Assembly (NCBI GenBank): GCA_049515895.1
Contig: JBEKTQ010000022.1
Coordinates: 1 to 51,080, forward strand
Length of the DNA stretch: 51,080 nucleotides
From: Candidatus Bathyarchaeia archaeon
Lineage (GTDB): Archaea; Thermoproteota; Bathyarchaeia; Bathyarchaeales; Bathycorpusculaceae
Direction of reading: 5' to 3'
The notes under the pieces were generated by a model, which was given only the letters and a program-made list of their open reading frames with translations, searched no databases and was not told the origin of the DNA. How positions within the stretch are numbered: position 1 is the stretch's first letter; the number at the start of each line of letters is the position of its first letter. Shown in pieces: positions 1-48,302 of this stretch. The position numbers were made by a program, and so were the translations under genes.

Positions 1-270
1 GCCAATCGTCCAGATCTATTTCCATTTCTTTGACTTTTCCTATTTTCTCGTCTACCGCCCACAATTCTTTATCCAAAATCTCTTTACTTTTCGCTTTCGC
101 ACTCATACTTATCTATCCCTCCCTTTCCACGTTATAATTTGAGCTACCTTTTTAAATGGTCATTGGCGGAATTAAACGGGTGTGACTGTGAAGCCACAGC
201 GACATCTAGGTATCAACCGAGATTTTGCTTGAAAAATGGATTATGTATAAGTATTGAATTGAGTCAGCGT

Positions 271-969
271 TTAATGCGTTGCTTCTAACATTATGCGCCT
301 AAAAATTTCTATGCCGTGTCTAACACCTAGTTTTTTCTCACCCAATCTTTCTCGATATTTAATGGGAATTTCCACGATTCCAAAACCTTCCAGCTTCACA
401 TGATGATTAAGCTCTACCTCAACGTCAAAGCCTTTGGATTTCACTTTCCAACATCTAAGAATTTCCGCACGGAGTACGCGTAGCCCTGTCAGCGGATCGG
501 CTAACCAGACGCCGTTTAGAAAGTTTTGAGCAAAACCTATGAGCCGATTACCAAGGTAAAAAGCGTAATTCAGCCCCTTCATGTCTTGGTAGCCACTGAA
601 TCGGTTACCGCAAACCATACCCACATCAGGATTCTTCTCAAGCATCCGAATCATTTCAGGAACGTGTTCAGCAGGGTACGTGTAATCTGCATCTGTGATA
701 ACCACGTAATCAACTGTTAAATCCGAGTGCTCAATCGCTTTCGCTATCGCATCGCCCTTGCCTAATCCATCTTGAATTACAACGTCGGCACCCATGCTTT
801 TAGCTATCTCAACGGTTCGATCCGTACTTCTGCCGTCAACAACCAGAACACGTGGACTAGCAAGGTTAGCCTTAAGCTCAACGATAGTTGGTCCTATGCC
901 TTCTTCCTCGTTCAAAGCAGCAATGATAACTTGCGTCGAGGGGACACCCTGCACTTCTCCTTTCCCCAC
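271..969 (-). CDS. Glycosyltransferase family 2 (DPM1-like)
   Basis: VIIAALNEE, VVDGRSTD, GLGKG, TDAD (DxD), DPLTGLR, FDVEVEL and R-x-GEKKL motifs of dolichol-phosphate-sugar synthase-like GT2. Confidence 0.9.
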   Translation of the reverse strand: MGKGEVQGVPSTQVIIAALNEEEGIGPTIVELKANLASPRVLVVDGRSTDRTVEIAKSMGADVVIQDGLGKGDAIAKAIEHSDLTVDYVVITDADYTYPAEHVPEMIRMLEKNPDVGMVCGNRFSGYQDMKGLNYAFYLGNRLIGFAQNFLNGVWLADPLTGLRVLRAEILRCWKVKSKGFDVEVELNHHVKLEGFGIVEIPIKYRERLGEKKLGVRHGIEIFRRIMLEATH

Positions 970-1278
970 TCACATCAACGCTCTTTTTAAGCATAACTTG
1001 TTTAGACTCTTATTTAATACACTATGGAAAAAACGGAAATATATCAACACTTTCAACCTTAGCTTTTTATTCCGCATAATTGACACTCCCACGGCTGAAG
1101 CCAGTGGGATTCCGTCCTGCTCTTCTTGCCCTGACCAAGCGTTCTTAATGTACGCCTTGATCTGCGCAAGCCTTTCGGTGGATATGTCTAGCGTAATTTG
1201 TTGTTGTTGCCGCTGAACTGTTTTTACATACTCGCGGGGTTTTTCATGGTCAATATTACGCTGTGATATTGCAGTCAT
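970..1278 (-). pseudogene. Truncated/chimeric copy of the small protein at 48483-48863
   Basis: First ~46 aa nearly identical to 48483..48863; the frame then runs through an IS200/IS605-like hairpin into AT-rich sequence upstream of the GT2 gene. Confidence 0.6.
1080..1112 (+). mobile_element. IS200/IS605-family end-like subterminal hairpin (orphan)
   Basis: TTGAC-ACTCCCACGGCTGAAGCCAGTGGGATTC: imperfect hairpin CCCACGGC-TGAA-GCC(A)GTGGG preceded by a TTGAC pentamer; no tnpA/tnpB nearby. Confidence 0.6.
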
Positions 1279-1459
1279 GGGAAAATCAAACTCCTAAATC
1301 CAAACGCTGATTTTGACATAGACAGAATAGTGTCGAAAATAACAGTGTTATGTTGTTGTTTTTCGATGGTTAAATGGTAAAGTCGCATGGAAGCGCCACA
1401 AGGCACCATTTGTGAAGTCAACAGTGTAGGGCATTTCGTTTTGAGGTACCCTACGATGC
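1138..1459 (-). repeat. ~320-bp repeat, copy 1 (inverted relative to 48303-48623)
   Basis: Direct alignment: 137/141 nt identical over the coding part, lower identity over the upstream ~180 nt. Confidence 0.95.
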
Positions 1460-1686
1460 ACAGGGGGTATACTTGGAGTCACACTTTCACTTTCTCCTGC
1501 ATCTCCGCGTAGTTTATGGATCCTCGCGCGCTTGGCTTCAGCGTGCCTGGCTTTCTCTTCCGGCGTCCAGTCCCTGTAGGGATGCAGCTGATAGCGCCTC
1601 CTGCGGGCCGCTCTCTCCGCTTCACAATGTTTTTGGTACTGCCTCCTTGAAACGTCTCAGCACCTCAGACCTTGGCGCCTGCACAT
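1348..1686 (-). pseudogene. GC-rich virus/plasmid-like ORF relic with in-frame TGA
   Basis: MCRRQGLRC*DVSRRQYQKHCEAERAARRRRYQLHPYRDWTPEEKARHAEAKRAR...; TGA at 1657-1659; local GC visibly higher than the flanks. Confidence 0.3.
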
Positions 1687-1897
1687 GAATGAAGTCAACG
1701 TGGTTGAAAGCATCGCCTTCGCTAAGGCCAGGCTCACTTCCTTTCATCTCAAAAACCAACTCCTGGTAAACAAGAAACACACAGATGCAGCGGAGCGCCA
1801 AAGAAAAAGAAGGAGATTGGCGGGAGATGTAAACTGGCCAAAGTGGCGATAGTTAATATAATCGTATTGCACGCAGGGTGATTTAGATTTCCGCTTA

Positions 1898-2143
1898 TTA
1901 TTCGCTTAATTCCATTTTCTCTAGTTCATCTTTTTCAGCTTCGTCTTTTAATTCCGAGATTCCATAGTTCACTTTATCCTGCTGAAAAGGAGTTGTATGG
2001 TCTTCACAGAGGAAAAGCTTGCTAAGTACACCCCCACGTTCATAGCGAATGAAGCTGCCTTTGTCCACACGCTTGACCTTGTAAACGTCAACTTTGAATT
2101 TGGCTTCTTTGCCACAGTCCTCAGAACTTCTATCACACTTCAT
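1898..2143 (-). CDS. Small Cys/His zinc-finger protein
   Basis: N-terminal C-x6-C and LCEDH motif, acidic tail. Confidence 0.6.
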   Translation of the reverse strand: MKCDRSSEDCGKEAKFKVDVYKVKRVDKGSFIRYERGGVLSKLFLCEDHTTPFQQDKVNYGISELKDEAEKDELEKMELSE

Positions 2144-2986
2144 CGCTTTCTCATCCTATTTTCCATGTTTTCAATGTTTTCCGCGAGTCTCATAGTCGGC
2201 CTCAAGTTCACGGATGCAAGAAGCCATAGAATCAGCGTTCGTGTTAACGACCACCTATTAAATGGATTAATTCGCGCATCATAATGACTACGCTGGGATA
2301 CATTACGAATGCACATAAGTTTACAATAATCATTTAGTCGTCTCCTGTCTTGTTTTCCCTAAAGATTACTACTTGCTCACTTCTGCAGAACAGCAAAGAA
2401 GCCTCTCCATTTCGCTCAGACAATTTAACGATTTCAGCTTCTTAAGGCAAATTTCTAAAGTTGGAATATATCGTGTATTGGAGTCAAAAGAGGAAGAGTG
2501 CGTAGATTTCTAAATCAGACCTTTTTCAGCAGGTTCAAAAATGCTCAGGGATCTCTTCTTTCAGGTAGTAAGAGTGGTCCAAAACCCAAGTTTCTACAGA
2601 ACTTTTTTCCATTCTAAAAACAACACATTTTTTAAAATCAAACCTGCAGCGAGGCTTCGGCATTAGCTAACGAACAAACTACGGGTGGATAACAGCCACC
2701 ATAGATGGTATTTCAGCGTTTCAAGAAGGTAAACTGACGTTTTCAGCAAGCAATTCAAGAATTTATTTTACTTCAAAAGAAGAAGACTCCCGCAGCAAGC
2801 ACACTTCTTCTTCCACTTAGGACTGGTTATCGCTATTTTCATGGATGGTGTATGTTCTCTTTATGAAAGAACGAAGTGACTGTAAAAAAGGGGATTGTAT
2901 GAGGGAGACATCGCCACTGACAGCTGAATACAATCGTATTTGCACTAAGTTATCGAAAATTTAAAAAGCTTACTTAGCCTTCCCAC

Positions 2987-4066
2987 TTGATTATGAAGAC
3001 TTCTGTAAAAATTGGGTCGGCGTGGGGCATTCCCATCGAGCTGCACCTGACCTTTATCCTGTTGATAGTAGCGGTGCTGGGACTCTCAATCTACTACAAT
3101 CAAATTTATTCTTTCATCCTCATAGTGTTCCTGTTTGTTTTCGTGCTTTTCCATGAGCTCGCGCACTCGGTTATTGCAAGACGATACGGCATTAAGGTCC
3201 GCAAAATCATTCTCTACCCTATCGGCGGAGTTTCCGAGATAGAGGAGATACCTGAAAACCCAAGAATAGAGTGGCGCATGGCTTTTGCGGGTCCCCTCAC
3301 AAGCCTGATCCTTGGAGCAGTACTTGTGGTCATAAACTTTGTATTACCACTAAAACTGATATTTGCCCCATCGTCAATTTTAATTTCCACCGGGAACCTG
3401 CTGCTTGACTTGGGATACCTGAATCTGCTTCTTGGCGCGTTCAATTTGCTACCAGCTTTCCCGATGGACGGGGGCAGAGTTCTAAGGGCGCTACTAGCTG
3501 AACGCATGAAGTTCACCGACGCCACTAAATACGCAAGTTACATTGGTAGAATCCTCGGAATCGGCATGGCGTTTTTCGGAATCGTTTTTCCAGGGTACTT
3601 TTTGCTTATTGTAGTTGGTGTTTTTGTTTATGTGGGAGCCAGCGAAGAAGCGGAACAAACTATTGTCTCCACGACTTTGGCAAGTGTCCGTGTAAAAGAT
3701 GTAATGCAATCTGAAATCGGTTCAGTTCGCCCCGACGAAACCCTTTCTGACGCCTTCGAAGTCATGTTTAAGTCCAAGTACCATGACGTGCTTGTTGAAA
3801 AAGACGGGATCTTTAAGGGTATTGTCACGTGGAATGAAATAATCAAGATTCCAAAGGATCAACGCGACAGCATCAAAGTTGAGCAGCTGCCGGTGAAGAG
3901 CATTTCAACTTTCCCAGACGAAGCGGTCTTTGAAGCGTACAAGCTGATGACCAAAGAAAAAATCGATTTGATGCCCGTTGTCGAAAAAGACACGTCTACA
4001 AAGGTTGTAGGGGTCTTAACAAGCGAAGCGGTCGCGAGCGCTTACGAGAAAGCTAAGAGTCGTTAA
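2987..4066 (+). CDS. Site-2 protease (M50) with tandem CBS domains
   Basis: HELAH, NLLPAFPMDGGR, multiple TM segments, C-terminal CBS pair (VKDVMQ ... LMPVV). Confidence 0.95.
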   Translation: MIMKTSVKIGSAWGIPIELHLTFILLIVAVLGLSIYYNQIYSFILIVFLFVFVLFHELAHSVIARRYGIKVRKIILYPIGGVSEIEEIPENPRIEWRMAFAGPLTSLILGAVLVVINFVLPLKLIFAPSSILISTGNLLLDLGYLNLLLGAFNLLPAFPMDGGRVLRALLAERMKFTDATKYASYIGRILGIGMAFFGIVFPGYFLLIVVGVFVYVGASEEAEQTIVSTTLASVRVKDVMQSEIGSVRPDETLSDAFEVMFKSKYHDVLVEKDGIFKGIVTWNEIIKIPKDQRDSIKVEQLPVKSISTFPDEAVFEAYKLMTKEKIDLMPVVEKDTSTKVVGVLTSEAVASAYEKAKSR

Positions 4067-4092
4067 CGACGCTATTTCCTGTGAAACCGCAA

Positions 4093-4449
4093 TCACATGG
4101 GCCTGTACCTGCTTTTCTCGGAGAAGTAATCCATCACTCTGGTCGCGTCGAAGAATTTAGCCGAATGGGGTATTCCCGCGGGAATCAGGTATTCGTCACC
4201 TTTCTTATAGTGCCGCAACTTGCCGTCGATGTTTAACTCCATTTCGCCGTCTATTACCATGCCCCACTGTGCATAGGTATGACTGTGCGCGGGCATGTCT
4301 GTGCCCTTTTCAAACTGGAAAAAGACAAGTTGGCTTGACTCCGCCTGTAGAATCCAAGCTTTGCCACCTTCACAGGAAACTTTCGCTTCTGGCAAATGAG
4401 TTATGACGTCTGGATAACCGGAAACCTTCTGAACCTTTGCCTTACTCAA
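4093..4449 (-). CDS. Cupin domain protein
   Basis: PAHSH ... QWGMVIDG ... GDEYLIPAGIPHSA cupin motifs. Confidence 0.9.
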   Translation of the reverse strand: MSKAKVQKVSGYPDVITHLPEAKVSCEGGKAWILQAESSQLVFFQFEKGTDMPAHSHTYAQWGMVIDGEMELNIDGKLRHYKKGDEYLIPAGIPHSAKFFDATRVMDYFSEKSRYRPM

Positions 4450-4608
4450 GCATTTTACCCCAAGGAGATAACAACCTGGGAAAGAGAAAAACCCTTTGAT
4501 GGTTCAAGTTGATGGCAAATATTTGGGTCTGCGTTTTATGTCCGCAGCCATTTTTTGGGTTGCGAATTGTTACATCGATAGGTCAGCGGCAATGATGACG
4601 GACAGGAT

Positions 4609-5127
4609 TTACTGTGTTGTATCTTTCACTTGCTCTTCATTGCCTTGTCGACTTGCCCCACAGTTCGGGCACTTGTCGAGCCTTTCGTCATAGACCGTCC
4701 CGCAATAGGAGCAGCGAATTTTTGAGCTTTGCTTTTCCATCTCAATCTCCAACGAGCCATCTTTTAGCACAACGTCTATTTTTTCGGCTTTAGCCCATTC
4801 TGGCCCGTCTTTGGGCGCCCTCCATCGGGTGTTGCCGTTTTCATCTGTGTATTTAGTGAAGCCTTCGAGCTCCAACAGTTTCTCACGTTGTTCGGGAGTC
4901 GCATTTTGCATGGCGCTAAACGTGCGTCGGTTGCTAGTCTGAGGCTTATTCTTTTTGGCTTTGCGAGAACTGTAAACTGCAGAAACCGCGAATATTATGA
5001 TGACGAAGGCTCCTATTGCGAAAGGTAAAAAACCATAGTAAACCCAGACCACATACAACCCGATGGCAAGAATGAACAGCAGGATGCCGATACATGTGTA
5101 AATTTCTTCTTTGCCTCTTGAACTCAT
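4609..5127 (-). CDS. Membrane protein with C-terminal zinc ribbon
   Basis: Two N-terminal TM helices; CSYCG ... CPNCGA. Confidence 0.8.
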   Translation of the reverse strand: MSSRGKEEIYTCIGILLFILAIGLYVVWVYYGFLPFAIGAFVIIIFAVSAVYSSRKAKKNKPQTSNRRTFSAMQNATPEQREKLLELEGFTKYTDENGNTRWRAPKDGPEWAKAEKIDVVLKDGSLEIEMEKQSSKIRCSYCGTVYDERLDKCPNCGASRQGNEEQVKDTTQ

Positions 5128-5519
5128 TATTTCACCACCAGCGACAAGAAACCAAATGTAAACAGGAAACCTGTTAGCAACCGAAGCATGTTGTTGCTTT
5201 CTCCGAAACCCGTGAGTTGGGAGGTCCCATCAATCACCATCGGCACCATCATGACTATCCCAGCAAATAAGGGAATCTGCAGGTTAAGAAGAGCTAATGA
5301 AATGAAGCCGAAAAAGCCTACTAGCAAGCCCGTGCATCGGGAACATATAGGGAATGTGTGCCCAAGAATTGCAAGGCTTCTTTCAGGACGCCTGTGGCAA
5401 AAAAACGCGAAGCCAAGCTGCTTTTTTCCGACATTTAGAAGCAGGACTGGGCCAGCTCTGGCATCCCAAATGAACTCAAAAATCCTTCTCTTGACTGGGG
5501 CTGATTGAGGGCCAATCAA
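5127..5519 (-). CDS. DUF2085-type membrane protein
   Basis: CHRRPERS, CSRCTG, PMVIDG, SNNMLRLLTG motifs; start uncertain. Confidence 0.85.
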   Translation of the reverse strand: MIGPQSAPVKRRIFEFIWDARAGPVLLLNVGKKQLGFAFFCHRRPERSLAILGHTFPICSRCTGLLVGFFGFISLALLNLQIPLFAGIVMMVPMVIDGTSQLTGFGESNNMLRLLTGFLFTFGFLSLVVK

Positions 5520-5638
5520 AACAAAAACACCTTCAATACACTGTTACAACTTTTGATGTTTAACTCTATCGGGAAGCAAAATAGCAAAATACCGCCACTA
5601 CAAAAGTTGGCTTTTTAGCGTTCAGAATTCAAATGGGT

Positions 5639-5965
5639 TCAGATTTGATATTTTGGTCGTTTGGATTCTTTTACCCAGAATTGTTCGTCATCAACCATTA
5701 TTACTTGAACTTCAACGACGTTTCTTGGACAAGTTATTGCTGCGCGGAACTTGGGGGGTAAGTCGGGTTTTGCCAGAAACGTCATTCTAGACTCCTCTAA
5801 CTGTTCTGCTATGCGCTCGGTTTTTTTGTTGGGGTAGCCGTGGTACTTTACGCTTTTCCCTTCGGTGATTGCTTTATCGAAGTCGGCTTTGCTGCATTGG
5901 ATTAGTTTTGCGCCATTTCGGACGAACCAGTATGGCAGATTCTTAGACATAATAATCGTCGGCAA
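5639..5965 (-). CDS. Hypothetical protein
   Basis: 108-aa ORF with plausible composition, no recognised motif. Confidence 0.55.
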   Translation of the reverse strand: MPTIIMSKNLPYWFVRNGAKLIQCSKADFDKAITEGKSVKYHGYPNKKTERIAEQLEESRMTFLAKPDLPPKFRAAITCPRNVVEVQVIMVDDEQFWVKESKRPKYQI

Positions 5966-6168
5966 TAGGGTTCAGGTTGACTCTTAATTAACATTGTTGT
6001 TGCTGACACAGATTAGCGCCTCAGAAGTCGAATTTGAATCAATCATTACGAAGATCTAATCCGCTTCATACTAACGTGTTTGTCATCATAGACGCTTTAA
6101 ACATCAATTTCAGCAAGCAAACCAGTTTTATGAAACGAAAATTGATTTGATAAGAAAATTCTGCAGGT

Positions 6169-6309
6169 TTAACGTTTGATAGTGAGCGTAAGATAATGGC
6201 CTTTATGGTCAACCATCCGATGGATTCTCAATTCTTCAGGATTATGAAATTTCGCGGAACATAATCTGCACTTAAATACCTCTCCATAAATAACCTTGTT
6301 ATCCAACAT
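6169..6309 (-). CDS. C2H2 zinc-finger microprotein (46 aa)
   Basis: FKCRLC-x12-H-x4-H; ATG at 6309 preceded by GGAGAAGG. Confidence 0.75.
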   Translation of the reverse strand: MLDNKVIYGEVFKCRLCSAKFHNPEELRIHRMVDHKGHYLTLTIKR

Positions 6310-6509
6310 CGAAATCGACCTTCTCCACAAGCCTATGGTTAACAACACTAAGCGACTTATAAACAAAAGAATAATTTCAGCTTGAATCATCATGATTTTC
6401 GTTAAATAGCATTAGAAGTAAATTCTAAAGAATTCTCAAATCCAATTTTGCGCTCGCATCAATTTTCCAACACGTTAAAACTTATATAGAATATCTAATA
6501 ATTTTAAAT

Positions 6510-6743
6510 ATGGTTGTCAAAATGTCGATAGATATAAAACTTGAACGCGGCGTCAGAGGATACACCATCGTTAGGAAAAAATGCCCGAACTGTGATGCCG
6601 AATTAATCTTCAAGATCCATAAGAACGCAATTCACGACGTCGGCGGAGAAGGACTCTATTACCCCGAAGAAAAGGTTGTCCGCTGCAAAGTATGCATGAG
6701 CACATTCAAATACGAAACCAAGCTCACGGCTGAAAAAAAATAG
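6510..6743 (+). CDS. Zinc-ribbon small protein
   Basis: CPNC ... CKVC; TTATATA box just upstream. Confidence 0.7.
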   Translation: MVVKMSIDIKLERGVRGYTIVRKKCPNCDAELIFKIHKNAIHDVGGEGLYYPEEKVVRCKVCMSTFKYETKLTAEKK

Positions 6744-6931
6744 ACCTAATCAAGAAATAACAAGTGCTATCGTAACCACTTCATGAGCTTAGCGCAAAGA
6801 CTTGATTTCACAGGTTGATCTCCAACCTTCAGAAATTTTTGCTGTGAAAAATCCAACGACTTTGTTCTTATGCTTTTAAAACATTAAGCGAATCCTGGCA
6901 ATAGCACTGAAATACTTTCTGTTTATCAGCA

Positions 6932-6979
6932 AGTGAGTCGGGTGGGATTTGAACCGTAATGGGTTCAAACCACAAAGAC
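6932..6979 (-). repeat. 48-bp tRNA-3'-end-bearing element, copy A (att-like scar)
   Basis: Minus strand GTCTTTGTGGTTTGAACCCATTACGGTTCAAATCCCACCCGACTCACT; 44/48 identical to 24957-25004. Confidence 0.9.
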
Positions 6980-7106
6980 TTTAAAAAGTAAAAATAATGC
7001 AGATTCTTTAAAAACAGTTAATAGCGAGCATTTCTACGCGAAAAGCGAGCTGAACCAAGCTTCTCCTGCCAAGTTATTTCTGGTAGCTATTAAGTAAAAT
7101 CATCTT

Positions 7107-7137
7107 TGACGCCCTTGCCCAGCTAGGCTATCGGCGG
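7107..7137 (-). ncRNA. Orphan tRNA 5' half (positions 1-29), isotype undetermined
   Basis: CCGCCGA TA GCCT AGCTGGGCAA GGGC G TCA: acceptor 5' strand, U8/A9, D-arm with A14, G15 and GG; no matching 3' half in the window. Confidence 0.65.
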
Positions 7138-7153
7138 TTCTGAACTCAAGAGA

Positions 7154-7231
7154 TGGTGGGGCTGGAGAGATTTGAACTCTCGTCTATAACGCCCGAGGCT
7201 ACAAGCCTAGACCAAGCTAGCCGACAGCCCC
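7154..7231 (-). tRNA. tRNA-Pro (CGG)
   Basis: GGGGCTG/CAGCCCC acceptor, anticodon arm GTAGC-CT-CGG-GC-GTTAT, T-arm GAGAG-TTCAAAT-CTCTC, encoded CCA. Confidence 0.93.
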
Positions 7232-7327: not shown

Positions 7328-7930
7328 TTAAACGCTGGTTGCCGCGGTAACAGGAGGCGTCGTGGTCGATTCGGACTCGCTTAGAGCTGAGCTGACATGG
7401 CTGTGGTATAGTCTTGCGGTTATACATAGCGCGGTAGCTACTACTGCAAGATAGAAGGGCAATTGAAATGTTCCTGAGACCAAAGCGCTAACGGTGGCGC
7501 CCATAGTCCAGCTTCCAGGTAGCGTGACTGTTGCTGAACCATTCAGTGGAAGGTATACACCGAAATGTCCCGCGATCAACAAAATTATTGCTAGGACCAC
7601 AACAAAACTTACAACTGAATACAACGGTTTTTTATACGAGAATCCGAGCAGGTGTTTAGCGTAAGGTTTTGTCGGAACCAACGAGTAAATCAGCATAATT
7701 ATTCCGCTGGCCGAGAATGTTAGTATGGTTACAAGGTTGAGGGCCCAAATTAGAGGTATTGTAAATTGCGTGCCGAATAAACCGAAATTTGTGTTGACGG
7801 GAGAAGCATTGATTTTAATGAGGCTTTGGCCGACGGTTAGCTGCCACCAGGGCATGTAAAGGGAGATTGCGAGAGCTATTAGCGTGATGATTCCAGCAGC
7901 GAGACCAATCCAGTTTATTTTTCTAGTCAA
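7328..7930 (-). CDS. Multi-pass membrane protein
   Basis: Four hydrophobic segments; translationally coupled to the upstream gene. Confidence 0.8.
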   Translation of the reverse strand: MTRKINWIGLAAGIITLIALAISLYMPWWQLTVGQSLIKINASPVNTNFGLFGTQFTIPLIWALNLVTILTFSASGIIMLIYSLVPTKPYAKHLLGFSYKKPLYSVVSFVVVLAIILLIAGHFGVYLPLNGSATVTLPGSWTMGATVSALVSGTFQLPFYLAVVATALCITARLYHSHVSSALSESESTTTPPVTAATSV

Positions 7931-7931
7931 A

Positions 7932-8525
7932 TCAGGTTCCCCCTGGGCTTCCTGTTAGACTTTGCAGGTTTGAAATTGAACCCGCGTCGATGTGGTCAAT
8001 GTGCACAAGAACTCCGCCGACATCTACGTTTACATTGTTCAAGGCAATGTTGAGGTTGCCCCCAGTGTTTTGCGCTGCAAGCTGATTTACTGCGTCAGGA
8101 TTCAAATTTCCTGAGGCATTTATTACCGAATTTGCTCCTGGCGGTATGCTGATTGTTTGAGGCATGGAGATGTTGCCCAATGAAGTGCCATCTTCCGTGA
8201 CTACTTGCGCTGACAGATGATCGAACGAAATTTCGGTTGATAGAGGGTTAGTGAAATTGAATGGGTAAGTAAAGGCGCCGGTGGTTGGATTGTACTTTGG
8301 TTGCCCAGCCGGCTGGGGGATTTGAAAATTCGGCAGCGAAGGCGAAGCTGACGACTGTGGCCCAGCAGAGGTTCCGCTGTTCCCACCGCCGTTCATTAAG
8401 TTCTTCATTTGAGGCGGAAGAACCAACCCCAACAAATTGTCCTTGTAAGCGTACACTTCAGCCACTAAAGGCACAATAATGATCATAATGGAGAGAACTG
8501 TTAAAGCCACCTTGACTTTATCCAT
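7932..8525 (-). CDS. Membrane-anchored protein, LEA2/WHy-like beta domain
   Basis: N-terminal TM, Pro/Ser linker, FNFTNP motif. Confidence 0.7.
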   Translation of the reverse strand: MDKVKVALTVLSIMIIIVPLVAEVYAYKDNLLGLVLPPQMKNLMNGGGNSGTSAGPQSSASPSLPNFQIPQPAGQPKYNPTTGAFTYPFNFTNPLSTEISFDHLSAQVVTEDGTSLGNISMPQTISIPPGANSVINASGNLNPDAVNQLAAQNTGGNLNIALNNVNVDVGGVLVHIDHIDAGSISNLQSLTGSPGGT

Positions 8526-16304: not shown

Positions 16305-17470
16305 ACCCGCATCATTTTTTGGGCGCAAAGATCCCATGTGAAGTTCTCAGAAACAAACTTTCTTCCCTCTGCACCCATTTTTTCGCGCAACCCCCTATCT
16401 GACAAGAGCCTCATCACAGCATCCGCGAATTCGTCCGTGTTGCCACGCTTAACCAGCAATCCCGTTTCTCCTTCGCGCACAGCTTCGTTTATTCCGCCAA
16501 TATTGAAAGAGACAACGGGCTTAGCAGACGCTCCTGCTTCAAGCAGCACTATGCCTTGCCCTTCTTGGATTGATGGCAAAACAAAAACGTCAGCACAATT
16601 GTAGGCAGCAACAAGCAGGGCTTCGTTGAGGTTGCCTAGAAACTTGAATGTTCCCGAAAGGTTGGCAGCCTTCAAGTCGCCAAGAATATGGCTCTTTAAA
16701 GGTCCTTCCCCGACGATCACGAATCTTGTTTTCTTGAATTCTTTAACAATTTTCTCAGCTGCCTTAACAAGAAAAGGCAGACCTTTCCGGGGAATCAAGC
16801 TACCGACGAAAAGCACGCATGGTTCATCGCCTAATCCGAACCGTTGCTTGACAGCTGAAAGGTCGGCAAGCGGCTTAAACTTCTCCGGGTCGACACCATT
16901 TGGGGCAATCCGAACCTTTGATGGGTCTGCGTTGTAGAATTGCTTAATCTTTTCAACTGAATAATTGCTTATGGTTACGATAAGCGTCGCGTTTTCCGCC
17001 GTTTCCTTTTCAAGCATTGCAAGTCGATGCATGAAATAGTTGGTTGCTCTCCCCCTCAAGGATTGAGAACCGCTCTTGCGCGCCTGGTCGTACTCGTCTG
17101 CGAGTACCCCGTGAACAGTGTGGACAAACGGCTTTTTGATGCCTTGCTTTTTTAGGGTTCTTAAAAGTCCGTACCCGCTCGCCGCGTGTGCCTCGTAGAC
17201 GTCAGCATCTTTGCTGAGGGCTTTTTTGGATACGCTTCGGTTAAAGAACCAATTATCCAAAGGGAAAAGCCTATCAGTTGAATAGCACGGAACAAAACTT
17301 GCACCGTTAATGTTGACGGACTCTTTGAAGCCTGCCTTGGTGCCGCTGTAAACGGTAATGTCCGTTTGGTTTGTCAGACGCTTGGTGGTCTCGATTATTC
17401 GCCTTTCTACCCCTCCATAAAAGAGGTGTGGCGGCTGAGTGTTTAGGACGGCTAATCGAAACTTCCCCAT
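16280..17470 (-). CDS. Glycosyltransferase family 4
   Basis: GGVE, HTVHG, PNGVD, RKG, PSIQEGQGIVLLEA (E-x7-E). Confidence 0.93.
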   Translation of the reverse strand: MGKFRLAVLNTQPPHLFYGGVERRIIETTKRLTNQTDITVYSGTKAGFKESVNINGASFVPCYSTDRLFPLDNWFFNRSVSKKALSKDADVYEAHAASGYGLLRTLKKQGIKKPFVHTVHGVLADEYDQARKSGSQSLRGRATNYFMHRLAMLEKETAENATLIVTISNYSVEKIKQFYNADPSKVRIAPNGVDPEKFKPLADLSAVKQRFGLGDEPCVLFVGSLIPRKGLPFLVKAAEKIVKEFKKTRFVIVGEGPLKSHILGDLKAANLSGTFKFLGNLNEALLVAAYNCADVFVLPSIQEGQGIVLLEAGASAKPVVSFNIGGINEAVREGETGLLVKRGNTDEFADAVMRLLSDRGLREKMGAEGRKFVSENFTWDLCAQKMMRVYREALEM

Positions 17471-20986: not shown

Positions 20987-21064
20987 GGGCCGGTAGATCA
21001 GTCTGGTATGATCGCCGCGTTCGCAACGCGGAAGCCGCGGGTTCAAATCCCGCCCGGTCCACCA
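20987..21064 (+). tRNA. tRNA-Ala (CGC)
   Basis: GGGCCGG/CCGGTCC acceptor with G3:U70, CCGCG-TT-CGC-AA-CGCGG, GCGGG-TTCAAAT-CCCGC, CCA. Confidence 0.97.
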
Positions 21065-21487
21065 AATGCGTTTTAACCTATTTTGGAAATAGGATTTGAT
21101 TAAATAATTAAGCGAGACCCATCGGACCCGCCTCCTTGTCTAGTATGGGTCTCTATGGGAATTTGGCTCCAAATGAGGTTGGAGCTTGGCTTCAGATGTC
21201 GAGGACCCATTCCCGTTTTCTTTTAAGGTGATTAGCATAATGCTCTGCTTCAAGAGGGCATGCAACAGGTTTTAGACGGCGGAGAAGGGTATCTTCTCAA
21301 CGGACGTTTATAAGCACTTGTGTAATGGTTTGTAAGAAGAAGAATTTGTCTGCGTCATTTTTCTGTCAGCTAAGATGGTTTAGAACTCAAAATAAGCCCG
21401 GTTAGCGAACGCCAAGACCCGAGGCCTCCCCCCAAAATTACACAAAACTGTGTAATGGCCATGAGTGTTTTCGCTCTACCTGATTAC

Positions 21488-21512
21488 GGTTCAAATCCCG
21501 CCCGTTCCACCA
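21488..21512 (+). repeat. Direct repeat of the tRNA-Ala 3' end (attR-like)
   Basis: GGTTCAAATCCCGCCCGTTCCACCA, 24/25 identical to 21040-21064. Confidence 0.92.
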
Positions 21513-24683: not shown

Positions 24684-24956
24684 CCAAGTTGAGGTTGTTG
24701 ATGATACTGTAAAGTTGATTGTTCCAGAAGGGTCCCGCAAAAAGAGGAAACTTGAATTTTCAACAATTTGCTCCTGCCCCTTTGGGAGCAAGTCCGTTCC
24801 GACGCAGCCCTTCATGACCGCGTGTAGACCGGCTTGTATTCATTTAGGCTGCCCATGTACTACTAAGGTTTTGAGCCCAAAAGGGTTCAAGGATCTCCAG
24901 CTCCAAACTTTGATTATAAACTCACAAAACCTGATTCTACAAATTTTGGCAACAGT

Positions 24957-25004
24957 GTCTTTGTGGTTTGAACCCATTTCGGTTCAAATCCCGCCGGATT
25001 CACT
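24957..25004 (+). repeat. 48-bp tRNA-3'-end-bearing element, copy B (att-like scar)
   Basis: GTCTTTGTGGTTTGAACCCATTTCGGTTCAAATCCCGCCGGATTCACT; 44/48 identical to copy A. Confidence 0.9.
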
Positions 25005-37253: not shown

Positions 37254-37407
37254 CGGGAGGTAGCTCAGCCTGGCAGAGCTCTCGAACCGGCTAACATGCT
37301 TAGCTGATGGAGACGCTGTAGAGGTCTACCCACGGTGGGCTTCATTCAAGCCTGTGCAGGCCACAGATACCGAGCCGTCGCAGGTTCAAATCCTGCTCTC
37401 CCGACCA
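37254..37407 (+). tRNA. tRNA-Tyr (GTA) with two BHB introns (30/31: 37285-37314; 37/38: 37322-37368)
   Basis: C1:G72 and A73; spliced anticodon arm CTCGG-CT-GTA-GA-CCGAG; both junctions fold as bulge-helix-bulge. Confidence 0.93.
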
Positions 37408-47627: not shown

Positions 47628-48302
47628 AATTAATTTAGCTAGGAACAAAAAAGATAACATTAATTTTTGCTTTTCGTTACTCAACGATGTAACTAATAGT
47701 TTTGTTTGCTTAGGGCTGTATATAGCAATCGGTTCCTTGTTTTGTGGATTCTTGAGGGACTTCACATGCGCTCCACACACTTGCTGGTGGATTTACAACA
47801 GCAAACAAGAAATAGAAATAGTAGAGCAAGGCTTCGAATCGTTAGAACCGAATGGCAGGGAATGAGCAAGTCTATATGGAAAAGTTGATGCATCAGCAGC
47901 AAGACCAATTCGGCATGATTAACTTGAGACCGAAAAGCACAAATTCATCTCCACAAACTATCACCACTGCAAAACTGGCAAAAGCGTTTATAACCTGTCT
48001 TAACATCAGCACGGGTTGTGAACCATCTGAAACAATGTGTGTGCGGTCGTAGTCTAGTTTGGTCTAGCACTCGACAGGTGATATCACCCGTAGATTTTCG
48101 GTTTCCTTTTGCGCTTTCCCCTTTTTCTTTTTTTGTGATGTCGTCTCCAGGCAGTTTGTATTTAATTTGTAGCGCAAAAATTGCAGGGTGCATTCATGGA
48201 GTACATTGTTGACCCCAACCACAAGAACACCACCAAGGTAATCGGCAAGGCCTGCATCACTTGCCAGGTCCGCATCATTGAGGGCAACTACGTTGTAACT
48301 AA

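Follow-up and report, generated by a model that had tools for sequence, protein, structure and literature searches.

A tRNA-like 5' segment that lies just behind a tRNA-Pro gene in the genome of a Candidatus Bathyarchaeia archaeon is very probably a non-functional, tRNA-derived stump in the decayed scar of integrative elements that use this tRNA-Pro(CGG) gene as their attachment site. The window (the whole stretch of DNA that was analysed, 51,080 nucleotides) is contig C22 of genome G000, an assembly of 3.18 Mb in 53 contigs at ~44% G+C. The tRNA-Pro(CGG) gene, with an encoded CCA, occupies 7231..7154 on the minus strand (ARAGORN; Rfam RF00005, 50.3 bits) and is followed on the same strand by a 16-nt spacer (7153..7138; TCTCTTGAGTTCAGAA) and by the segment (7137..7107), which reads CCGCCGA TA GCCT AGCTGGGCAA GGGC G TCA and is shaped like tRNA positions 1-31. 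Its D-stem is fully paired, A14, G18, G19 and A21 are in place, and it begins with C1, like the tRNA-Tyr of the same genome; downstream of 7107 the trailer reads AAGATGATTTTAC. Both coordinates and letters were reproduced as given in the preliminary description, which had reported a tRNA 5'-like segment 16 nt 3' of the tRNA-Pro CCA on the same strand. The arrangement is real and not an assembly artefact, because an independently assembled Logan contig from run X1, which may be the source sample, covered 6600-7180 with 0 differences. Contigs of two other runs left 7008-7143 (run X2) and 7106-7143 (run X4) uncovered, gaps that speak neither for nor against the arrangement; the contigs of RNA run X23 had nothing on this DNA, which in a set of contigs need not mean absence. 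In run X2 the tRNA-Pro contig diverged in its letters beyond 7154 and by eye resembled the flank found in the relative G019, which hints at the presence of other strains.

The DNA right after the tRNA-Pro CCA reads as the conserved left arm of a tyrosine-integrase element family. The left-arm motif (TCTCTTGA plus GTTCAGAACCGCCGATAG; 7128..7153, minus strand) was delineated by pattern search across the genus, and the pattern GTTCRGAACCRCCGNTAG is found exactly at 7128-7145, within ~10 nt after the CCA, which marks the left end of the tyrosine-integrase elements of the type found in G003, a complete genome. With up to one mismatch, 9 of the 120 genomes searched in the genus contain this pattern, at 10 places in all; by eye, eight of the 10 places were directly behind a tRNA-Pro gene or an orphan tRNA-Pro-like 3' end, and in six of these eight an integrase ORF then follows, the window and G051 being the two where it does not. 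Copies behind tRNA-Pro were seen in G003, G102, G113, G076, G051 and G077, on contig C14 of G000 and in the window. The supposed acceptor strand of the segment together with U8-A9-G10 (CCGCCGATAG) is identical to the last 10 nt of the left-arm motif. The same CCGCCG variant is carried by G051, where unrelated DNA and no D-arm comes after it; G051, with the left arm nearest to that of the window, was considered as a closer relative and set aside, the alignment past the arm being unconvincing.

In G003 the integrase, of the tyrosine type and 429 aa long (PF00589 at 30.1 bits, cut-off 27.1), starts 55 nt after the tRNA-Pro CCA, and G000 carries an integrase 77% identical to it behind the tRNA-Pro(GGG) gene on C14. 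Across the genus, a tRNA gene or an orphan tRNA 3' end was seen by eye just upstream of the integrase at 26 of 27 loci of the family. Moreover, a 63-nt copy of the 3' part of tRNA-Pro lies ~760 nt downstream of the tRNA-Pro gene in G016. Its sequence neighbourhood marks tRNA-Pro(CGG) as an integration hot spot of the genus, where integrative elements have their attachment site (attL side).

The likeness of the segment to a tRNA was quantified with a profile HMM trained on the initial 33 nt of 35 G000 tRNAs without introns, with which the whole assembly was scanned by nhmmer. The stretch 7135..7108 (minus strand) aligned to tRNA positions 3-29 with 11.8 bits (rank 16). Among the 28 matches of at least 10 bits, 26 were intact tRNA 5' ends and one was an orphan stump on another contig (C17:12069), the remaining one being the segment, while the best scores in context-preserving shuffled genomes were only 7.4-8.7 bits. 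Raw emission log-odds divided the segment (26.5 bits) into 6.9 bits from model positions 3-10, the part common to the left-arm motif, and 19.5 bits from the D-arm part at model positions 11-29. Judged by these scores, the tRNA likeness is real and exceeds chance, yet it rests on only ~28 nt, and what appears specifically D-arm-like is only the ~19 nt after the left-arm motif.

A look-alike that arose by chance, with the left-arm motif supplying CCG-N-TAG and the next 19 nt of element DNA being D-arm-like by accident and no tRNA involved, is an unlikely alternative that must nevertheless be weighed. Consistent with it, the first 10 nt of the segment are accounted for by the left-arm motif; the nhmmer E-value is 1.3 per genome; the Rfam tRNA model gave no truncated match at E <= 10 on the cut-out 7107-7160, and in general no match for the stump or for the orphan T-arm described below, even when these were searched as cut-outs permitting truncation; and a loose D-arm regular expression is so common (45 matches in the genome, 23-40 in five shuffles) that it does not discriminate. 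Against an accident speak the shuffled genomes, none of six of which reached 9 bits as compared with the 11.8 bits of the segment; the share of the D-arm part alone (19.5 of 26.5 raw bits); the fully paired D-stem with the four tRNA-typical bases named above; and the other element ends, since the only one of 15 (10 distinct sequences) with any profile match was the segment itself and the other 14 had none.

The search for a parent tRNA bears on the same question. The 31-mer of the segment had no second copy in the assembly (best match 13 nt). Degenerate patterns of the segment gave no match in viral contigs, and in 185,579 species genomes they gave none in one search and, with the pattern TAGCCTAGCTGGNNNAGGGCGTC, two in another, both non-tRNA; this lack of any tRNA with such a D-arm favours an accident. 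An att duplicate is marked by three features: i) near-exact agreement with a portion of an intact tRNA gene, normally at the other end of the element, which was found neither in the assembly nor in relatives nor in the 185,579 species genomes with the patterns used; ii) an adjacent integrase gene, of which tblastn with two integrase types showed no remnant in window positions 1-7100; and iii) a position at a mobile-element border or in a variable island beside a tRNA gene, which the segment does have. Since no parent tRNA was found, the segment is only a candidate att duplicate of a tRNA, and for the same reason a chance origin of the 19-nt piece keeps its minor share of the probability.

Three further orphan tRNA 5' stumps exist in G000, and all three appear from their sequences to adjoin integrase-type genes. 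The first, at C17:12069, consists of 40 nt of tRNA-Gly(CCC) and is followed 2 nt later by the ATG of an integrase, with the intact gene 4 kb downstream. The second, in the window at 48043-48067 (plus strand), consists of 25 nt of the 5' end of tRNA-Gly(GCC), of which the intact gene is at C25:2171, and continues into the palindrome GGTGATATCACC and a T-rich stretch. The third, at C16:53889, consists of 20 nt of tRNA-Arg(TCG), lies 16 kb upstream of the intact gene and has the same palindrome/T-rich layout as the stump at 48043; the 416-aa ORF after it matched no Pfam family, and from its C-terminal motif it looks like a divergent tyrosine recombinase. The palindrome GGTGAYRTCACC follows both the stump at 48043 and that at C16:53889. 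In the trailer of the segment, AGATGATTTTAC (7094..7105, minus strand; MAFFT alignment A1) may be a decayed copy of this palindrome: 11 of 14 aligned columns were identical to the 48043-type end by hand count of the MAFFT alignment, and the spacing from tRNA position 1 is much alike. The resemblance is weak, and so it hints only faintly that the D-arm piece was once a stump of the kind seen at 48043 and on C16.

The segment lies in a strain-specific variable island, which extends from tRNA-Pro to a syntenic M50/CBS protease gene (4067..7153; tblastx against four relatives). The flanks, 2987-4066 with the protease gene and 7328-8525, are conserved and syntenic in the four relatives by tblastx; the gap from tRNA-Pro to the protease gene measures ~1.4 kb in G016, 3.1 kb in the window, 5 kb in G019, 7.9 kb in G004 and over 16 kb in G003. 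Small ORFs of the island matched a cupin, a Zn-ribbon membrane protein, DUF2085 and a C2H2 finger (Pfam, PHROGs). No integrase remnant was detected in window positions 1-7100 by tblastn with two integrase types. Separately, a 36-aa remnant of a third integrase type was noted at 1646-1750 (minus strand), 5.3 kb from the segment; it is 53% identical to residues 7-42 of the 416-aa ORF on C16 and has a similar upstream T-rich/CCAGGAG region, and from this resemblance it reads as another decayed element end within the first 7 kb of the window.

About 130 nt downstream of the segment, an orphan tRNA 3' end was found at 6973..6934 (minus strand), which bears out the earlier claim of a tRNA-derived scar at that distance. 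It consists of GTGG, a 15-nt insert (TTTGAACCCATTACG) and GTTCAAATCCCAC CCGACTC A, the T-arm being interrupted by an 8-6-8 inverted repeat (TTTGAACC CATTAC GGTTCAAA). At least six copies of this hairpin T-arm are present in G000, with T-stems that co-vary (GTGG/CCAC, GCGG/CCGC, ATGG/CCAT), and relatives carry copies as well; a search of the genome for a 5' acceptor plus D-arm that would match their acceptor strands gave none. Because a hairpin T-arm directly precedes the left arm and integrase in G047 (L038), we read the copy at 6973..6934 as a probable right arm of this element family together with an att-like core. In the relatives, the hairpin T-arm also takes a perfectly palindromic form (TTTGAACCCAATTGGGTTCAAA) and occurs as a pair of neighbouring copies (G003:C1:886145-886268, L026; G012:C13:527021-527064, L023); the palindromic form therefore reads as a T-arm on both strands.

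Between the two ends, the stretch 6939..7066 (minus strand) is internal and right-end DNA of a miniature element: G016:C5:107726-107844 matches query positions 175-302 (window 7066-6939) at 72% identity and belongs to a ~230-nt mini-element that also has a left-arm-like motif. The whole of 7153..6934 thus looks, by its layout, like a collapsed or miniature element made of left arm, ~150 nt and right arm/att. Its ends do not make one clean element, because the att-like core with its CCGACTC acceptor strand matches neither tRNA-Pro nor the stump. That the integrase of the family acts in trans to move the ~220-nt unit as a non-autonomous miniature integrative element is an unlikely possibility, and the homologous ~230-nt unit in G016 bears on it.

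Two similar arrangements were noted elsewhere in the window. A second hairpin T-arm lies at 24957-25004 (plus strand; GTGG TTTGAACC CATTTC GGTTCAAAT CCCGC CGGATTC A) and shares 97% identity over 36 nt with the copy at 6934-6973, and a left-arm-like motif (CCCAAAAGGGTTCAAGG) is located ~85 nt upstream of it at 24876-24892; the region 24876-25004 may be a miniature element. At another tRNA gene, tRNA-Ala(CGC) (20987-21064, plus strand), the 3' 25 nt recur with one mismatch ~420 nt downstream (21483-21510), preceded by GATTAC, and to judge from the repeat the two copies resemble an att pair that encloses only a tiny remnant.

Two other explanations of the segment depend on the tRNA complement of the genome. 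ARAGORN and Rfam together left several isotypes apparently missing, because the genes carry introns at unusual places. Reading of the sequences yielded Pro-GGG (C14:67899-68036), Glu-CTC (C1:184197-184301) and Arg-CCT (C35:~71-203), each with a D-loop intron; Ala-GGC with a T-arm intron (C3:43674-43779); Ser-TGA with an intron at position 7/8 (C25:51462-51575); Trp with several introns (C13:55738-55941); and Tyr, Leu-CAG, Leu-TAA and Leu-CAA. The tRNA-Tyr(GTA) gene, parsed by eye at 37254-37404 (plus strand), has a C1-G72 pair and two introns (~30/31 and 38/39), in agreement with the 30/31 intron claimed for it before; it was missed by ARAGORN without the intron option and by Rfam at the gathering threshold, and ARAGORN with introns called it Leu(CAA). 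A tRNA-Asp(GTC) gene with a D-loop intron was found at C5:~16687-16800 via its ortholog in G003; it went undetected by ARAGORN, and in G003 it is below the Rfam cut-off. Even with the intron option on, ARAGORN and Rfam between them did not detect tRNA-Asp, and they gave several intron-bearing genes a wrong label or only part of their extent. With the intron-bearing genes included, whose anticodons were assigned by reading of the sequences, all 46 of 46 expected anticodons were present (ARAGORN, Rfam and reading by eye). These 46 anticodons are the usual archaeal set. PMC3218864 likewise gives a total of 46 for Thermofilum. As a side observation on the assembly, contigs C48 and C50-C53 (2.7-3.7 kb) have 55-60% G+C, as compared with ~44% elsewhere, and a stretch of C50 looks like a bacterial-type 5S rRNA; these contigs may be contaminants in the bin.

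The preliminary description had offered, as one of two readings, the stump of an intron-containing tRNA broken by the element whose scar lies downstream. The link of the stump to that scar held up, and the idea of a resident intron-containing gene beside tRNA-Pro that was broken in place did not, its 'acceptor' part being the left-arm motif. Such a gene is very improbable here, even though many tRNA introns of G000 sit at non-canonical sites (D-loop, T-arm, 7/8, 30/31) and the element scar is only 130 nt away, on several grounds: i) the first 10 nt of the segment belong to the element arm; ii) in G003, G019, G016, G013 and G004 tRNA-Pro is followed by element DNA or other sequence; iii) no neighbouring tRNA was seen by eye in the first 250-330 nt after tRNA-Pro in 4-5 relatives; iv) the tRNA set is complete without the segment; and v) the acceptor strand of the downstream orphan T-arm is not complementary to the 5' strand of the segment. 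A single multi-intron tRNA gene over 7148..6934 was likewise considered and rejected: CCGACTC pairs with the upstream GAGUU at only five of seven positions, an anticodon arm is missing from the intervening DNA, and 6930-7153 folds no better than ordinary sequence (z = -0.67).

The other earlier reading, a working 5' half of a split tRNA that is transcribed together with tRNA-Pro and joined by trans-splicing near 29/30-30/31 to a distant 3' half, is supported by none of the searches and appears extremely unlikely. In its favour, the segment is undegraded and tRNA-like and starts with C1 as the tRNA-Tyr of the genome does, and split tRNA-Lys genes joining at 30/31 are described in PMC3218864. 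A T-arm followed by T[CT]GG[CT]GG gave 10 regular-expression matches in the assembly, none of them a tRNA; with the last two bases left free there were 21 matches, and the only two with 5-bp T-stems inside tRNA genes were the intact tRNA-Val(TAC) and tRNA-Ile(GAT), each with its own 5' half. The earlier observation that no TCGGCGG acceptor strand stands behind a T-arm in the window is thus correct and extends over the assembly, and the genome search that had been proposed for a 3' half came out empty in these 53 contigs; this is an absence from the assembly, and a partner could be unassembled. The proposed check for a missing isotype also returned nothing missing, so that a joined product would supply no otherwise absent tRNA, all 46 anticodons being already encoded.

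Conservation and pairing were no more favourable to a split gene. A 23-mer of the segment with up to three mismatches matched in 2 of 100 other congeners, in both cases the D-arms of intron-bearing tRNA(CAT) genes, and a 28-mer with up to three mismatches matched in none of 400 other genomes of the order; the segment accordingly had no true match in the 100 congeners or the 400 order genomes, and it sits in an island specific to the strain. By eye count, G+C makes up about one quarter of the trailer, as the earlier remark on an AT-rich trailer unlike the GC-rich leaders of known split tRNAs had it. Complements of at least 10 nt to the trailer occurred at 145 places, none adjoining a tRNA 3' half among the matches listed; a loose T-loop pattern flagged three of the 145 places, none of them a tRNA by eye among the matches listed, and no trailer-leader pairing with a BHB motif and G/C-rich stem was found. 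Finally, the 'acceptor' is an element motif. A variant in which the stump serves as the 5' half of a trans-spliced 47th tRNA, element-borne and co-transcribed with tRNA-Pro, with the 3' half in unassembled or mobile DNA, would be equally remote from what we consider probable.

The favoured reading, a stump in the scar of integrative elements, would proceed as follows. Integrative elements insert at tRNA-Pro(CGG), and the DNA directly after its CCA is their left arm GTTCRGAACCRCCGNTAG. In the window copy the usual integrase promoter and gene are missing, and in their place are the 19-nt D-arm-like piece, ~130 nt of element DNA and the right-arm/att-like orphan T-arm. The D-arm piece would go back to the 5' part of a tRNA that an integration had duplicated or captured, an origin suggested because the three other 5' stumps in G000 adjoin integrase-type genes. 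A deletion or illegitimate recombination would then have joined this relic to the left arm at the common TAG. The segment would have no product, save at most read-through RNA from tRNA-Pro.

Split (trans-spliced) tRNA genes are known from Nanoarchaeum equitans and Caldivirga. They are also described for Staphylothermus and Aeropyrum in PMC3218864, according to which known split halves pair via a BHB motif and a ~14-bp G/C-rich stem. The segment resembles the cases described there in ending near position 30, a split position in use, but it differs from them in having no 3' half, no complementary G/C-rich leader-trailer stem, no missing isotype to supply and no match found in relatives; moreover, at 16 nt behind tRNA-Pro it has no room for a promoter of its own. 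It is closer to tRNA fragments made by integration in archaea, of which examples are a 5' tRNA-Thr fragment beside a recombinase-bearing insertion in Caldiarchaeum subterraneum (PMC3293823) and partial tRNA genes from integrations in Thermococcaceae (PMC9897764); six partial tRNA fragments are also mentioned for Aeropyrum (PMC3218864). As in the first two accounts, an orphan piece lies beside recombinase-element DNA in a variable region by a tRNA gene and has no function of its own. On the other hand, a textbook fragment repeats, almost letter for letter, a portion of an intact gene situated at the opposite end of the element, whereas for the segment no parent gene was found, its integrase gene is gone, and its first 10 nt are element arm, not tRNA.

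The family as a whole is similar to the pNOB8/SSV-type tyrosine integrases at tRNA genes in having the integrase gene by the tRNA 3' end and short conserved repeats near the crossover; the window copy departs from those systems as a ~220-nt remnant without integrase. The repeats of this family are T-loop-like GGTTCA motifs in the left arm, in the core and, inverted, in the right arm, and the integrase may bind them.

The segment thus most likely belongs to the known class of tRNA gene fragments left by mobile-element integration and is an ordinary feature of its kind. It adds one more case in which orphan tRNA pieces by tRNA genes are, as usual, integration footprints and not split genes. For annotation in this lineage it carries a caution: where an isotype only seems to be missing, a stump of this kind could be matched to it in error. 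The surrounding system may merit study in its own right: in it, archaea from peat metagenomes host a family of tyrosine integrases whose arm motifs are T-loop-like and whose att sites are hairpin T-arms, possibly with miniature derivatives.
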